A stretch of 63,099 bases of DNA, counting the filler, from Globobulimina sp. (taxonomy: Eukaryota), in the NCBI GenBank assembly GCA_003354225.1. It is 37 parts of 37 records of this genome, joined end to end, with 100 filler letters (N's around TTAATTAATTAA, not from the genome) between each part and the next. Parts side by side here need not be neighbours in the genome. Positions count along the whole stretch, not along the records: positions 32,463 to 34,070 come from PIVH01014169.1; 36 more parts are not named here. One strand, 5' to 3'. The notes under the pieces were generated by a model. It was not told where the DNA came from. It did no database searches and worked only from the letters and a program-made list of their open reading frames with translations. This document shows, one piece after another, positions 1,710 through 49,001 of this stretch; positions within the stretch are counted from its first letter, which is position 1; each line of letters starts with the position of its first letter. The position numbers and the translations under genes were made by a program.

Positions 1710-1920
1710 CCCCTGGTCGATAAGTTGTATACATTTAATTCAATTATCTGAGAAACGCTTTGCAAATCCAGAAACGGTTTGCTATAGGTTTGTCTTGTGT
1801 TTGTTCTGTGTTTGTTATAACTTTGTCTTGGGTTTGCAAATCCAGAACAAAGTCAGAACAAATTTATAATTGAATTTTCGGTATACAAAGGGGGGGTGGT
1901 TATCTTTTGGAATATATCGT
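1710..1920. mobile_element. MITE family A, partial copy with right TIR
   Basis: Ends GGGGGTGGTTATCTTTTGGAATATATCGT; internal sequence matches the copy at 27350-27776 in reverse complement. Confidence 0.85.
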
Positions 1921-1941
1921 GAAGGCTTTTCACAGAATATA

Positions 1942-2800
1942 ATGTCTTTCACACAGCAAATTTACTGTGGAAAAAAAGAAACTATTATTACAAAACCACT
2001 GGTTGTATCAATAGGAATATCTAAATATGGCAAATCAATCCCAGATATCGATGACATAAAACAAGAAATTGGTGAATATACCAAAACATTCAGCGACTCT
2101 TATAATTACACTGTAGTATGTAATAAATTTGATCAATTTTGTTCAAGACAAACCATCGAGAATTATTTGAATGAAACATGTAACAAATATCTCATCAACG
2201 ATGATCGAAACATCTATTTTAATTGTTTAATAATAACTATATCCGGTCATTGCAGTGCAGATTCATTGTTATGTTCTGATGGTCGATCCATAAAATTCCA
2301 TGATATTTTATCCATATTTACTGCTTCCGGTAACAATAAATATCTTTCTTCCAAGCTTCCAAAACTTCTCATTGTTGATGGAAATCGCGGATTTACCGTT
2401 TCTGCGATAACAACAAAACCAACACCATCCATTTATAATTATGCATGTATTATATCTTCGACATCAACCATGCATTCATCAGTTTATGGTGGTCAAATCG
2501 CATGGAATGTGTGCCAAATATTTGAACAATACAAAAGGAATAGTACTGGTTTATTACTCCATGCTATTTTTACAAATTTAAAGCAAAGATTATCTCAATC
2601 CTTATATCAAAATGATGCTTCCGCAGTTTCTTTTATCGCAGACCCGGAGATGAATGTGATTACATTTCGATTTCGAGCAAATAAACAAAGCAAATGTAAA
2701 CATAGTCAGAATGGCACAGTGGCAGTTCCTATCGATCAAGCTCCAAAACCTCCGCATAAGATACCATTAAAAGCACCATCAAAGCAAGCACCAACAATAC
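1942..2800 (+). CDS. Caspase-like (C14-fold) protein lacking the catalytic Cys; 3' end lost at a chimeric junction
   Basis: PLVVSIGISKY, LIITISGHC (His motif), PKLLIVDGNRG where caspases have (Q/D)ACRG; the ORF-track start at 1870 lies in the MITE, ATG 1942 is more plausible. Confidence 0.7.
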
Positions 2801-2801
2801 C

Positions 2802-3318
2802 ATTCGCCGCTCAAAGGACAAATCCACTGCTCGAGCCAACCTGATGAAGCGAGACTTCACAGAGCGTCAAGCAAACGCTATCTTGGACATGCGTCTGAGC
2901 CAACTGACCAAGTTGGATGACAAAGAACTCCGTGCAGAAGCCAAAGAAGTTCAAGCACGAATCAAGGAACTGATCAAGCTCAACTCCAAAACAGACCTGC
3001 GTATTGAGTACATCCTGGAAGAAGTCGATGCTCTTGCTGTTCGTCACGGAAACGCTCGCCGTTCTAAACTCATCGGTGCCCCGGACGAACCCGATACTCA
3101 GGTCGTCAAGCAAGGACGAAGCAAAGTCTCCGTCTCCCGCCCACGATTCGTCAAGGTCGATGAGAAACTGGGTGTCCTCACTCAACTCAAGAAGATCGCC
3201 CGTGGTGTTATGGTTGTCGAATCCACCGACAAAATGCTGTTCATGTGTGACAACGGTAAAACCTACCGTGTCTCCGCGAACGCCAAAGGACCCCTTGCTG
3301 AATCACCGACACAGGTGC
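2802..3318 (+). CDS. Fragment of a type IIA topoisomerase subunit A (GyrA/ParC-like), prokaryotic or phage origin
   Basis: IRRSKDKSTARANLMKRDFTERQANAILDMRLSQLTKL...RHGNARRSKL; abrupt rise in GC at about 2800. Confidence 0.85.
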
Positions 3319-22468: not shown

Positions 22469-23666
22469 TTATTGGTCCGTACAAGGCGCAAAATGATCAA
22501 TATCTCCTCTCCGCATATACCGAATGCACGTTTCATACACTGGCTGATTTGTATTATCATCATAACGACCACCATTAATAATATCAGGCACTTGTTCCTT
22601 TGGTACAGTTTTAAACATTTCCTCAGTCGACATAATAAACATCCTTTCCTGCATTTTTTTGCTTAAAAACGGTTTGCAAATTTTCAACAACACATTTAAT
22701 AAAAACGGTGGATCCAACATATACATTGCACCAACACGTAATGGGTATGCATCTTGCATCAATTTTGTAAATATTTTCTCCATATCGAGGTTGAAATTAA
22801 TCCATCCCATATCCGCACAGTCTGCGATAAATATCATGCCATCCCGTGAATATTGCAAATTTTCCGTAAAATAATTCAAAATTAATAGAAAACACTTCAT
22901 TATAACCGCTGTACTCTCATAGTTTGCTGGTAGCCACAAACTGTATTTCATGGCAAATATAGCTTTGCCATTTTGGTCAACTCCGCCAAACCGCATACAC
23001 CGAGACACTAAATATCAGCAAGCAAAGCATGCATAATTTACAAACAGATTATGGTAGAATTTATACATAACTCTCTCTGAAACATTTTATCATTTGCTGC
23101 TCAGTGATTGATTGCAATTTATGTGTCTTATAAATAGCCATTGTATCCAACCATTTTTTTGATGCTTTTGGAACGCGGCATTTTGAGCCAATATAAAATC
23201 GGGCCATTTCAAAGGGCGGTAAATCTGTAAATTTATGTTTCGATTTTAATGCTGTTTCTAAGCTCATTGCACCATTCTTTTCTTCCTCACTTTCAAATTT
23301 TATTTCATCCCATGATAATTTGCTTGTGTTCACACCGCTGTCTTCTGCAAATAATATTTTATCCATTGCCTCAAAATCTATATTGTCAAAATTCTCTTTT
23401 TTTTCCTCTTGTTTTATCTCTTCATTCTCACGCTGTGCTTGTGCTTGTTGGTTATCATTTGATTTAACTTCTGTTTGTTCACTTTCGTCTGTTATGTCTG
23501 AGGGGTCCGATTTGGATTCTGTTTTTGATGGAAACTGTGTGTTTGCATCGGGTTCAGGTTTGGGTTCTTCTGGGTTTGGCTCTGCCTCATTTGTTACAGT
23601 AACTTCATTTACTGGTTCAGTTACCGGCTCAGCAACTGGTTTATTCTCTGTTTCCGCGGTTGCCAT
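22469..23666 (-). CDS. CRAL-TRIO (Sec14-like) lipid-binding protein with an acidic N-terminus
   Basis: GMIFIADCADMGW, QDAYPLRV, KPFLSKKMQER, PDIINGG; intron 23008-23071; ATG at 23666. Confidence 0.9.
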
Positions 23667-23922
23667 GCTTAAACACAAATGTATGACAAAATTAAAACGT
23701 TGTAGCAACTCTAAAAACACACTACTACAGAATGGGTTCCTCCTGTACTGCATTGAAGGTGCATGGCAGTCGTTACAAGCGTGCTCGACCCCGATCCGGG
23801 AATCTTCCCACGGGTGAATATGNNNNNNNNNNNNNNNNNNNNNNNNNNNNNNNNNNNNNNNNNNNNTTAATTAATTAANNNNNNNNNNNNNNNNNNNNNN
23901 NNNNNNNNNNNNNNNNNNNNNN

Positions 23923-25002: not shown

Positions 25003-25437
25003 ATGCCTGTAGTGTCGCACCGAACAGATTTTTGTTTGGTTCATCGATTAAAATGGAAGATTATTCCACCCCCAGCGGTAATCCCACCAAAGCCAGAGCG
25101 AATCATTCGCTTTGGAACGTATCGTCAAAGATTACAGAGATTTCCTAGGCCGGGAATTGTATTCCCAATGGCTGTCGTTGGTGCAGTGATAGTTAGTAAC
25201 ATATTCTATCAATATTATTCCAAACCGCGTCGAGAGAGATATCGATTATTGTACTTCTCAAATATGGCCGTTGATGAACCGGATAGTTATTTTGCCAGAG
25301 CGTGGAGTGAACAGCTCCCTGCTTTCCCCACCACCAAAGACGCCTATGACGATATGACATTTAGGAGAGATTTCGAGATCTTTAAGGATCCGCCATTGAT
25401 GCCATACGATGTGAAAGGGTGGGATCATACGGTATGA
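25003..25437 (+). CDS. Small single-TM protein, possibly a mitochondrial inner-membrane subunit
   Basis: 144 aa; basic N-terminus, one TM (GIVFPMAVVGAVIVSNIFYQYY), RRERYR after it. Confidence 0.55.
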   Translation: MPVVSHRTDFCLVHRLKWKIIPPPAVIPPKPERIIRFGTYRQRLQRFPRPGIVFPMAVVGAVIVSNIFYQYYSKPRRERYRLLYFSNMAVDEPDSYFARAWSEQLPAFPTTKDAYDDMTFRRDFEIFKDPPLMPYDVKGWDHTV

Positions 25438-27183: not shown

Positions 27184-27238
27184 ACGATATATTCCAAAAG
27201 ATAACCCCCCCCTGGTCGATAAGTTGTATACATTTAAT
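27184..27238. mobile_element. MITE family A, left end truncated by the contig end
   Basis: ACGATATATTCCAAAAGATAACCCCCCCCTGGTCGATAAGTTGTATAC, preceded by TAA. Confidence 0.85.
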
Positions 27239-32362: not shown

Positions 32363-32550
32363 NNNNNNNNNNNNNNNNNNNNNNNNNNNNNNNNNNNNNN
32401 NNNNNNTTAATTAATTAANNNNNNNNNNNNNNNNNNNNNNNNNNNNNNNNNNNNNNNNNNNNGATGGTCGTGATAGCTTCTGTCGTCATGCTTCAAAAGT
32501 TTTAGTTCAGAAAACTAACCAAGTGCAGTGTGTTTTGACTGTTTTCCACA

Positions 32551-33468
32551 ATGCTGCAGAGTAAAGCAAGGACTCGTCCTGCAATTGACGTTTATTTAGA
32601 TAAATTAAATGAAAATGAAGACATATTAAGTGAATTATTGGATGAAATCTACGATGACGATACATCAAACGAAGACTCATCGAATGAAAGTGTTAAATTG
32701 CCTGAAAATGAAGCTATTATTGATGAGATTTTGGATGAAATTGAAGAGAAAAATGACACATTTGAATTATGGGTGAAGAAGCAATGGAAAATGGGATCCA
32801 AAGTTGAGGTTTTGTCGTCGTCGTCGAGTGATAGCTGGTTTGAGGCAAAAGTAGTTGGAATATTTAATGATTCCTCGGGAGAATGGTTAGAAGTGCAATA
32901 TGTGGCGGATGAAAAGTTGAGATTAAAACGTATTCGTCGAAGTGATACGGCTGCAATCCGACCATTATCAAAAGCAATGGGAATATATCAGTATATATAT
33001 AACTCCATTCTTAATAATACAAATATAAAAACAGAAGAAACGGAAGCGTTGCCAATACAAATTATCCCGCAAATAATGCATAATTATCGAGAAAAGGAGA
33101 AGAATATGGCTGTAAAATCCTATTTAATTATTGATTGCCGAAAAGACGAAGAAATCGCAAATGAGGCAGTATTATCAGATACTTACAATGATTGGATCCA
33201 TATTCCAATGCAAGATATTTTGGATAATGCAAAATCCAAATCGTATATGACCTGTTTGACAGACTGTAATAACACTAAAATTGAGCATTTATTTGTTTTA
33301 TGACGAACAGGAAAAAGAAGCGATACCGTTGGCAAACATTTGTTGAAAATCGAGATTGGAATTAGTAATATCTACAATGTGGTTGGTGGCATCATTAGAT
33401 ATTATAAAGATGTTTTCAATCAAGATGTTAGCTATGAAAATAAGAAAGACGGTCAATGTAATTTATGA
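32551..33468 (+). CDS. Agenet/Tudor-like + rhodanese domain protein with an in-frame TGA at the catalytic Cys (candidate selenoprotein)
   Basis: WKMGSKVEV...WFEAKVV...WLEVQY; YLIIDCR...HIPMQDI...LFVL-TGA(33301)-RTGKRS...NIYNVVGGIIRY; frame continues 54 sense codons past the TGA. Confidence 0.8.
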
Positions 33469-34170
33469 TAAATCAATGTCTAATCATTTAATTTCTAAAT
33501 TGATTAGACAGTCGCTCACTGTTTAACGTATAATTGTTGTTTGTAAAATATTGAGATAAATTGGTTCAAATATATTTGTACATATTGGAGATAGTGACGA
33601 ATGTGACGGACGGATATATCTTATTTGTCTGACATTGTTCTGAATTGTATACACGTAATATGTTAAAATATTGTCAATTTGGACTTGTAAAATATCTGTG
33701 TTTTTGTAATGAATTAATTAATTTATCTTATCTCTTTTCTTTCTCATTCTCGTAAAAAAAAATACTTTCACTGTAGATTGGTTTGGAAGGATCTGGTTTC
33801 AGATTATCCTCGCACACAAGGAATATGTCGTAAACTAGTCTTCATCTTTGCAAGGCGTTCATAATTCTAAATATCCAATATTATATTATGGATTTGTTTT
33901 AGACAACTTTCGCGAGATTTGACAAGGTGGAACCTTATTTAAATTGCTATCTCCATTTGTATACCTCTGACTATATTTTGCATGCGTACAAACGGAAACG
34001 GATCAATATATAATAGATGTAAATAAGTGAATAACTTGTTTTTTTTTTTTTAATGGCACAAACAGTTTTTNNNNNNNNNNNNNNNNNNNNNNNNNNNNNN
34101 NNNNNNNNNNNNNNTTAATTAATTAANNNNNNNNNNNNNNNNNNNNNNNNNNNNNNNNNNNNNNNNNNNN

Positions 34171-35640
34171 CAGGCAAATTGTGCAGCAATTAAGTCAGAC
34201 CCAAAATGAATTAGAATGCGAACAAGAAGCCTTTAAATTATTTAAAGCCACCACACAAAGGAAACTATCAAAAATGAGCGATTTAGGTATAATTACCACT
34301 ATTTTCTATATATATTTGAGATATTTTTGAAACTGAAAATATGCAGAAAAGCAGCACAGGAAATTATCGTCGGCGTCCATTGCGAAACAACGGTTGGATT
34401 TGTTATTGGGCGAAGTGAGGCTATTAAACCTAGCACAACACAGCAACAATAACAACAAATCGGAAGACGAAGAGGAACCGACTCCAGACACTACCAACAA
34501 CGACGAAGACTCTGCAGACAGCCACGATAACGACGAGTTAGTCTATGACAATGACTTCGATTTCAATGAGAAAACCATGGTGATTGGAAACGAGCATTTC
34601 GCGCAACAGCACAGTCGTTGCTCGTCCATGGTGATCAACGATGACATCGACCAAGACTCCAAAATCCATAAAATAAACCTATCCAAAGACATTTTGCCCA
34701 CACTAAAGACCGCCAGCTCCGACGCGATGAGCGAGAAATATGGCTACAACGTCGGTGAGTTGTCGCCCATTGTCGGCGCACAGAATGAGGCCACACCAAA
34801 CCTCACCATCTCTGACAACACAGCGACCCAAAAATATTGGACGGATACCTCCGGCTCGAACCTCTCAAACATATCCACCAACGCGTACGATGCAGACATG
34901 CCAGACATTGACAACTATCCCATCCAAAACAACACCAAATCGCGACGCGAACAGAAAATAAACAAACATTTACCACACGACTCGTTTCTGACGCTATCGC
35001 CGGCTGTCAAGCAACAGATAATCGATAAGAAAAAGCCTAAAAATGATATGAACACAATCCTGGAACACGGCAATGCGAATAAGCCGCTGCCGCCACGTAG
35101 AAACACCATCGATCGCTTAATCGAGCAACAAGAGCTACAGTTGGAAGAGGAGGAAATTAAAATGATTTCCGAGCAGGAAACGCAATTATTGGCACCGGGC
35201 AATTCTCCGCTATCCATTCACATGGAAAAGAAGAAGAAACTGGACCAGACTTATCAGGATATACTGGCACAAAACGCCACAAATTACAACGAGTCGATGG
35301 ATTTCAACCAGCAGTCGTATGACATGGATGAGGAGGACGAATATAAAAATATCTACGCGGATTTCGGCGACAATGACAGCGAAAAGGGGCAACATTGGCC
35401 GTCGCCGTCACATATAAAGTCCCAAAGTTGCATGAACCGCTACAATGAGATGGTGATCGGCCACGAAGCGAATAAGTCGTCGCTGAGCAGTGTAGCGAGC
35501 GATGGGTATTTAGAGTTAAGTGATACTATGAAAATATCGCGAGAACAGTTTCAAGAGTTACGAGAGAAACACAATAAGCAATTTATGCAAAATCCGTTGC
35601 TGTCCAATATGTTGAACGAGATTGAAGAGACTCCCCGTCG
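34171..35640 (+). CDS. Low-complexity, acidic, probably disordered/coiled-coil protein; partial
   Basis: Long ORF from 34394 plus an upstream exon and a probable GT-AG intron near 34287-34346; GC-richer tail after about 35640. Confidence 0.6.
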
Positions 35641-48928: not shown

Positions 48929-49001
48929 TGGAGTACCCGGGTTTCGATCCCGGTGCCTTAACGTTGCGAACGTTACGCGCTTCCGATTGCGCCAGTACCC
49001 C
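48929..49001 (-). tRNA. tRNA-Ala(CGC): tRNA-Ala (anticodon CGC)
   Basis: Cloverleaf GGGGTAC/GTACTCC-A with G3:U70; D stem GCGC; anticodon stem TAACG/CGTTA with loop TTCGCAA; T loop ATCGAAA as in eukaryotic tRNA-Ala. Confidence 0.95.

Follow-up and report, generated by a model that had tools for sequence, protein, structure and literature searches.

A probable selenocysteine rhodanese with an Agenet-like N-terminal module, read across an in-frame TGA in a Globobulimina assembly

Can a TGA that falls inside a rhodanese domain be something other than the end of a gene? This question is raised by a locus of the foraminiferan Globobulimina sp. (assembly GCA_003354225.1), on the contig at positions 32463-34070 of the 63,099-nt stretch of DNA that we analyzed (the window). 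An open reading frame (ORF) of 250 codons on the plus strand starts there at ATG 32551 and is closed by TGA 33301-33303 (ORF 32551-33303). Beyond this TGA the same frame stays open for 54 codons (RTGKRSDTVGKHLLKIEIGISNIYNVVGGIIRYYKDVF...) up to TGA 33466-33468, followed at once by TAA 33469-33471, and presents no other lesion. A preliminary description of the locus had proposed that the TGA stands exactly at the catalytic cysteine (Cys) and encodes selenocysteine (Sec, U) in a rhodanese fused to a Tudor-like module. According to our results, UGA 251 is very likely read through, a conclusion that we consider well supported, and the gene probably encodes a Sec rhodanese with an Agenet-like N-terminal module.

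The first coding part (M1-L250, 32551-33300, plus strand) comprises an acidic N-terminus, the Agenet-like module, a linker and the rhodanese domain up to two thirds of its length. It is followed on the same strand by codon 251, the in-frame TGA for which Sec is proposed, and by the continuation R252-L305 (33304-33465), with the loop RTGKRS, the NIYNVVGG strand and a C-terminal tail containing Cys303. The TGA of codon 306 and the adjoining TAA (33466-33471) form a tandem stop or, alternatively, the end of a C-terminal C-x-x-U. Using Pfam and reading the TGA as Cys, we assigned residues 183-281 (33097-33393, plus strand, across the TGA) to the rhodanese homology domain PF00581, with 24.8 bits (cut-off 22.2). 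The domain becomes incomplete if the part behind the TGA is left out, since the active-site loop and the last strands are then missing. With this match across the TGA and the 54 open codons behind it, we agree with the preliminary description that the frame goes on and completes the domain.

The closest protein in a collection of 5.8 billion proteins was EP00483_Globobulimina_turgida_P004119 (P0001, from EukProt), 98% identical over residues 1-235, and the second-closest came from Bolivina argentea; these two proteins were retained from 1723 candidates. The best explanation is that the gene is nuclear and foraminiferan, from Globobulimina or a close relative. Of 1.84 billion representatives scanned in full with HMMER, 200 proteins matched at E<=0.001; among the 150 listed, most match the Agenet-like module, and 17 homologues of the rhodanese part make up our alignment A1. 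The TGA column is occupied by Cys in 15 of these 17, within loops such as CRSGQRS, CKAGVRS and CRAGKRS, and the Cys homologues include proteins of Elphidium margaritaceum, Bolivina argentea and Nonionella stella. By searching solved structures with the A1 profile, we found 22 rhodanese-type chains at E<=0.01 (best 6mxv_A, 4.6e-19), and the TGA column fell on their catalytic Cys, with 'flCrsGvrS' aligned against 'YFYCGGGFRS'. The same search of the PDB with the single sequence and no profile gave nothing at E<=1. The six-residue active-site loop of sulfurtransferases has the pattern C-x-x-G-x-R-[ST], and the loop of this gene, U-R-T-G-K-R-S with the TGA as U, follows it. The proposed position of the TGA at the catalytic Cys is borne out by the aligned homologues and by the solved rhodaneses.

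We checked the TGA on Logan contigs of four sequencing runs (X1, X4, X6 and X8) aligned to contig 32463-34070. In run X1, one contig extends over 32591-33820 and keeps TGA 33301-33303, with one other letter, at 33587, and with 5 gap letters whose positions are not listed, a caveat on the TGA in this run. Run X4, which belongs to another study and carries another organism label, has a contig over 33186-33451 that also keeps the TGA and differs at 6 of 266 bases (33231, 33243, 33261, 33264, 33414 and 33418). Since both contigs keep it, the TGA is no assembly slip. Coverage in X4 and X6 runs from about 32499/32531 to about 33707 and X1 continues, which hints weakly at the ends of a transcript; X6 and X8 may be RNA runs. 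We rejected the idea that an intron conceals the TGA, because both flanks align ungapped to homologues and the X8 contig is collinear with the window over 32613-33374.

Two further proteins bear on the same column. P0023 (EP01084_Bolivina_argentea_P134808, from the Bolivina argentea transcriptome) is 49-51% identical and ends '...NIEHLYLI', aligned to '...KIEHLFVL', one residue before the TGA column, a point in favor of read-through. P0026 is the 61-aa product of a 554-nt ENA contig; it starts 'MIW RTGRRSD...', with tryptophan (Trp, W) at the TGA column. Translated with table 4, the last 58 codons of the gene, which begin two codons before the TGA and include the last TGA, are 62% identical to P0026 over its entire length. 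The only two Trp of P0026 correspond to the two TGAs of the window, its Cys58 corresponds to Cys303, and it ends C-T-K-W. The simplest reading is that these Trp come from a gene caller using a TGA=Trp model on an AT-rich contig, and P0023 and P0026 may then belong together as the first and second half of one Bolivina-like orthologue that has both TGAs as well. A scan of JGI metagenomes with alignment A3 gave 366 pattern matches, 0 of them confirmed; a word-index search with the 61-residue C-terminal piece gave no candidate, and one with profile A1 gave 5 proteins among 1243 candidates, none of which adds a new Sec form.

Codons 183-289 hold the rhodanese domain, and 12 differences between runs are listed there; 11 of them are synonymous, 7 located before the TGA and 4 behind it. 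The only non-synonymous one is 33267 T>A in X6 and X8, which turns Cys239 into a second in-frame TGA: codon 239 (33265-33267, plus strand) is TGT here and TGA in these ~94%-identical versions. Behind the TGA of codon 251, the changes listed at codons 273, 278, 283, 288 and 293 are all synonymous, and the non-synonymous ones (codons 290, 296, 297 and 299) are all found in the C-terminal tail. X6 also has a +1 indel at 33452 that is compensated within one codon by a -1 indel at 33455, so that the frame is kept. The 3' untranslated region (3' UTR) diverges faster than the coding part, and with indels, the X6 contig over 33532-33707 (176 bases) having 12 mismatched bases and 9 gap letters. Because of the synonymous changes, the frame-restoring indels and the faster-diverging UTR, we consider it well supported that the post-TGA stretch evolves as coding sequence within the genus and, judging from the 62% identity of P0026, presumably across genera as well. 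Purifying selection downstream of the TGA, which the preliminary description had named as a check, is supported by this coding constraint.

If UGA 251 is decoded as Sec, recoding would be expected to depend on a Sec insertion sequence (SECIS). In the 3' UTR we found a SECIS-like kink-turn hairpin at 33591-33648 (plus strand), which starts about 120 nt behind the stop and has a minimum free energy fold of -16.6 kcal/mol (z -1.6). Its lower stem, AUAGU/AUUGU, leads to a symmetric 3x3 internal loop, GAC/UGA, that forms a GUGA_GA core, with GUGA 33594-33597 opposite GA 33642-33643. The upper stem of ~17 positions contains an A.A mismatch (33606/33632) and a bulged U33635, and carries a 5-nt apical loop. 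With thresholds set after the candidate had been seen, 0 of 1674 [AG]UGA..GA pairs in 115,782 nt of other contigs combine an inner stem at or below -12.5 kcal/mol with 5 adjacent lower pairs, and looser thresholds (-10 kcal/mol, 4 pairs) give three in this background, equivalent to 0.02 expected per 767 nt. The X6 changes listed within the hairpin (8 of the 12 contig mismatches are listed) are at 33616, 33620 and a deletion of U33635, that is, in the apical loop, the closing pair and the bulge. In the part of the article available to us (PMC11227280), GUGA_GA cores are reported from green-algal SECIS, with GU for AU before the first GA as a rarer variant, found in Ostreococcus, and the canonical apical loop is described as 'mostly' having unpaired adenines. 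We regard the hairpin as a SECIS candidate and not as a SECIS. The pair AUGA 33465-33468 and GA 33502-33503 was rejected as a SECIS core: its inner stem is at +7.3 kcal/mol and its bases lie inside another hairpin. The latter, a 14-bp hairpin directly behind the TGA-TAA stops (33478-33509, plus strand), overlaps a weak C/D-box snoRNA-like match in Rfam, SNORD72, with 26.1 bits against a gathering score of 43.

Several observations weigh against Sec. With Rfam we scanned the contig (1608 bases), 33290-33800 (511 bases) and 33575-33665 (91 bases), and no SECIS family appeared at E<=10; the 91-base scan did list an 11-bit match, so a SECIS of about that score would have appeared. Two scans for the [AG]UGA...GA core with unpaired AA/CC each found 0 in 33290-34070, compared with a background of 1.29 per kb, and an earlier ungapped/constraint-fold scan that needed AA or CC gave 4 hits, all of them coding and upstream of the TGA. 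The candidate hairpin itself has no unpaired AA or CC at its apex, its lower stem abuts the core with no internal loop in between, and its folding energy is ordinary, as 12 of 200 shuffles fold as well. The sole tRNA in the whole window, which is also its sole match above an Rfam gathering score, is a tRNA-Ala (CGC) at 48929-49001 on the minus strand. The column of codon 239 is not conserved among homologues, which is unusual for a Sec position. The X6 and X8 versions, ~94-95% identical to the window, show no change at 33301-33303 among the differences listed, with 38 others unlisted. The end of P0023 and the two W of P0026 are known as protein letters only, with the codons behind them not visible; of the TGA/Cys conservation expected in orthologues, the TGA is present as DNA in X1 and X4 and the Cys in the A1 homologues, and the Bolivina part stays at the level of protein. 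Finally, the literature that we searched contained no paper on foraminiferal selenoproteins or Sec machinery.

How far do these points favor other explanations? Two of them are equally unlikely. In the first, read-through would be specific to this gene and free of selenium, with a near-cognate or dedicated suppressor tRNA inserting Cys (or Trp/Arg) and giving an ordinary Cys-rhodanese. Both variable TGAs do stand for Cys, as a synonymous Cys codon would (251 by its homologues, 239 by its TGT/TGA exchange), and neither Rfam nor our own scans found a canonical SECIS. Besides, UGA 251 is followed by C (UGA CGA), and C directly after UGA makes a leaky stop context. However, with no TGA in 8,042 other codons, any such decoding must be restricted to this mRNA, as a SECIS would bring about, and a SECIS-type kink-turn hairpin is present. 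Near-cognate decoding is also normally inefficient, a poor fit to a catalytic residue that is presumably kept as TGA across genera.

In the second, the TGA would be a true stop, and the product either a protein of 250 residues whose rhodanese domain is incomplete and inactive, or that of a pseudogene. TGA does end genes elsewhere in the window contigs, a canonical SECIS was not found, and all database predictions of the gene end at or before the TGA (P0001 with 235 aa, P0023 at the column). If UGA 251 is read through, these last models mean that annotation pipelines remove the catalytic loop. A stop leaves unexplained why the 54 open codons behind it complete the fold, why the changes listed there are synonymous at five codons and why the paired indels keep the frame. 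Moreover, identity to P0026 downstream of the TGA (62%) is higher than identity to P0023 upstream of it (49-51%), and the same stop with an intact tail is not expected of a pseudogene in two genera.

A far weaker alternative is that UGA encodes Cys or another residue genome-wide, as in euplotid ciliates. We examined 21 other ORFs of at least 240 codons, delimited by TAA/TAG only and located on other contigs, and found no internal TGA in their TGA-free main blocks (8,042 codons, 200 TGT/TGC), where ~10 would be expected if 5% of Cys were TGA. The few TGAs of these ORFs are near the ORF ends, where they precede the start, fall in a probable intron or serve as the stop. Several long ORFs that end in TGA meet TAA or TAG within 3-17 codons, so that those TGAs are unproven as stops, a point in favor of reassignment; in contrast, a foraminiferal codon-usage study counts TGA among the stops, together with TAA and TAG, in its accessible part (PMC11980380). 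Because none of the 8,042 codons is an internal TGA, recoding is confined to this mRNA, and we consider it well supported that it is gene-specific and that UGA is not reassigned genome-wide. The preliminary description had argued the same from TGA stops at 25437 and 47481; these lie on unrelated contigs and are not neighbors of the gene, but they remain informative about the genetic code of the organism, and the broader count over 21 ORFs supports its conclusion. Least probable of all is an error in sequencing or assembly, or a nonsense mutation private to the sequenced individual, for which the low depth of X1 (9.68) and its possible identity with the source data of the window assembly could be invoked, but X4, from another study and with its own differences, keeps the TGA at a depth of 267.5, and the Bolivina homologue P0023 ends at the same column.

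Sec is the best reading of UGA 251 because of its catalytic-Cys position, the known selenoproteins of the family in bacteria and algae, the use of Sec in Rhizaria and the gene-specific recoding. Since the only SECIS present is a non-canonical candidate, we hold the proposed Sec-dependent transferase as probable and not as proven; the TGA, its catalytic column, its persistence in two run assemblies and the constraint downstream are shown. In the Sec rhodanese that we favor, the recoded UGA would give a product of ~305-306 residues, with an acidic N-terminus, the Agenet-like module and a single rhodanese domain, in which the active-site loop U-R-T-G-K-R-S would replace the C-[RK]-x-G-x-R-S of the Cys paralogues. 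Sulfane sulfur or selenium would be held on the Sec selenolate and then handed to an acceptor, and the Agenet-like module would have a targeting role. Recoding would be directed from the 3' UTR, where the GUGA_GA hairpin 33591-33648 is the only candidate element. Such an element would serve every in-frame UGA, and a change from Cys to UGA elsewhere in the gene would be tolerated; the drift of codon 239 to TGA in X6/X8 can be explained in this way because recoding is specific to this mRNA. In the same manner the final UGA (codon 306), backed by UAA, may yield a C-terminal C-x-x-U.

A bolder version, which we put forward tentatively and consider rather doubtful as a whole, is that Foraminifera use Sec with a divergent SECIS, a GUGA_GA kink-turn without apical adenines whose lower stem abuts the core, and that the gene is their first documented selenoprotein, a multi-Sec rhodanese fused to a foraminifer-specific module. 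Its components, taken jointly, would be the catalytic U251, a relay through the C-terminal C-x-x-U and a freshly gained U239 in the sister variant.

Regarding the N-terminal module, residues 82-138 (32794-32964, plus strand) match Agenet (PF05641) with 23.3 bits and E 9.4e-5, below the cut-off of 27, so that Pfam does not place it in the family; we call it an Agenet/Tudor-like module. It extends over residues ~70-155, with the consensus W-x-V-G-S-x-V-E-V-Y...G-E-W-L-E-V-x-Y...I-R-P-L-S-K-A. After scanning ten module homologues, we found Agenet at E<=0.01 in five of them, two of which were at or above the cut-off (P0016 with 32.2 and P0024 with 27.6 bits), and some homologues match chromo-like or Tudor models weakly. 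The module is widespread in foraminiferal data, where it is combined with a eukaryotic-type carbonic anhydrase domain in the P0004 cluster (Nonionella stella, Bolivina argentea) and with a ubiquitin domain in P0012 (a Logan contig). In Globobulimina the fusion lies in one continuous ORF, and the transcript-derived P0001 spans both the module and the rhodanese part. P0023, the Sec-type homologue of Bolivina, has no Agenet-like module and carries a hydrophobic N-terminus instead. The fusion first described as an unfamiliar Tudor-rhodanese architecture is therefore real, but its module stays below the Pfam cut-off, is common in Foraminifera with other partners and is absent from the Bolivina counterpart P0023. 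The module probably targets or tethers different enzymes.

The window is made of 37 unrelated contigs, 1607-1609 nt each, which are arranged by length and separated by 100-base spacers, each consisting of N44 + TTAATTAATTAA + N44; TTAATTAATTAA occurs 36 times, with 0.11 expected, at a period of 1707-1709 bases. Because of this construction, the adjacent genes provide no genomic context for the rhodanese gene. The tail of its own contig is repeated DNA: over 33759-33812 and 33975-34070 the summed depth of X1 contigs rises to 850-1118, and many contigs end or diverge there. On other contigs there are ordinary eukaryotic genes (DEAD helicase, PH-CHY-RING, ABCD transporter, Kelch, caspase domain). 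The contig at 42711-44318, with 46% GC and an open frame matching alpha-L-rhamnosidase (PF17389, 1.5e-50), is likely bacterial DNA among foraminiferal contigs. Behind the caspase-domain ORF (1870-2841) comes, in another frame, a fragment that matches the end of DNA gyrase/topoisomerase IV subunit A (2760-3317); the contig that holds this region (1870-3317) may be chimeric or carry a transferred fragment. Positions 1710-1739 are identical to 27209-27238, the first and last 30 bases of two contigs that probably abut in the assembly graph. The contig at 15382-16990 has an identical stretch of 11 bases (TGGTTTAACGA) at its two ends and may therefore represent a circular or tandemly repeated unit, and the contig at 44419-46026 terminates in tandem copies of CGCATCCCTC. 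Two places have the look of a short intron on the basis of translation: a short stop-bearing stretch within 22472-23822 (minus strand), between a CRAL-TRIO-like N-terminal part and its domain, and another that breaks the frame at 34172-34400 (plus strand), in the contig starting at 34171.

Foraminifera are major players in anoxic, sulfidic sediments, and if our reading is true, a Sec-rhodanese would add an enzyme that handles sulfur or selenium to their known anaerobic tool kit. The TGT/TGA exchange at codon 239 between near-identical versions would then be a Cys-to-Sec event caught in the act. Should hairpin 33591-33648 be a working SECIS, prediction tools, which rely on apical AA, would need a wider definition.

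How does this gene compare with known systems? In Euplotes, UGA is used for both Cys and Sec and is a general Cys codon. The Globobulimina gene resembles it in having UGA at Cys-equivalent positions and differs in that UGA is absent from 8,042 other codons. Bacteria insert Sec with a hairpin directly behind the UGA and with SelB rather than with a 3' UTR element, unlike the present gene, whose candidate element is in the 3' UTR. Bacterial rhodanese-related (seleno)proteins, for example those of NCBIfam NF041203 (rhodanese_LYCAU), are similar in that they consist of one rhodanese domain whose active site holds U or C. The window protein gave no match to NF041203 at E<=0.1, and the only homologue that matches, weakly (E 0.03), is the Cys protein P0036.

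In eukaryotes, the available part of a survey of algae (PMC7539508) lists a rhodanese-like selenoprotein among 42 algal selenoprotein families, reports 23 selenoprotein genes in the rhizarian Bigelowiella natans and describes Cys-to-Sec events within algal selenoprotein genes. As far as that description goes, the present gene shares with the algal protein a eukaryotic rhodanese domain with Sec (here proposed) for the catalytic Cys, the existence of Cys homologues and an occurrence in marine protists, Bigelowiella included; it differs in its Agenet-like module, its possible C-x-x-U, its foraminiferal origin and a SECIS candidate without apical AA. The comparison with the algal protein is at the domain level and by description. 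By the available account of canonical eukaryotic SECIS (PMC11227280), hairpin 33591-33648 is alike in its GA_GA non-Watson-Crick quartet at the base of a long stem, in the GU before it and in its place in the 3' UTR, and unlike in having no unpaired AA or CC in an apical loop or upper bulge, no internal loop between lower stem and core, an upper stem of about 17 positions and no match to an Rfam SECIS model.

Members of the same subfamily are the foraminiferal Cys rhodaneses with a single domain, namely P0028 (Elphidium margaritaceum), P0038/P0125 (Bolivina argentea) and P0071/P0135 (Nonionella stella). They are 26-32% identical to the window protein and share with it the loop [CU]-[RK]-x-G-x-R-S and the N-I-x-G-G motif, and they differ in having Cys at the column, no Agenet-like module and mostly other N-terminal extensions. 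What is new is probably a eukaryotic Sec-rhodanese in a phylum for which the literature that we searched describes no selenoproteins; its domain partner is unusual, it may end in C-x-x-U, and its SECIS candidate is atypical.

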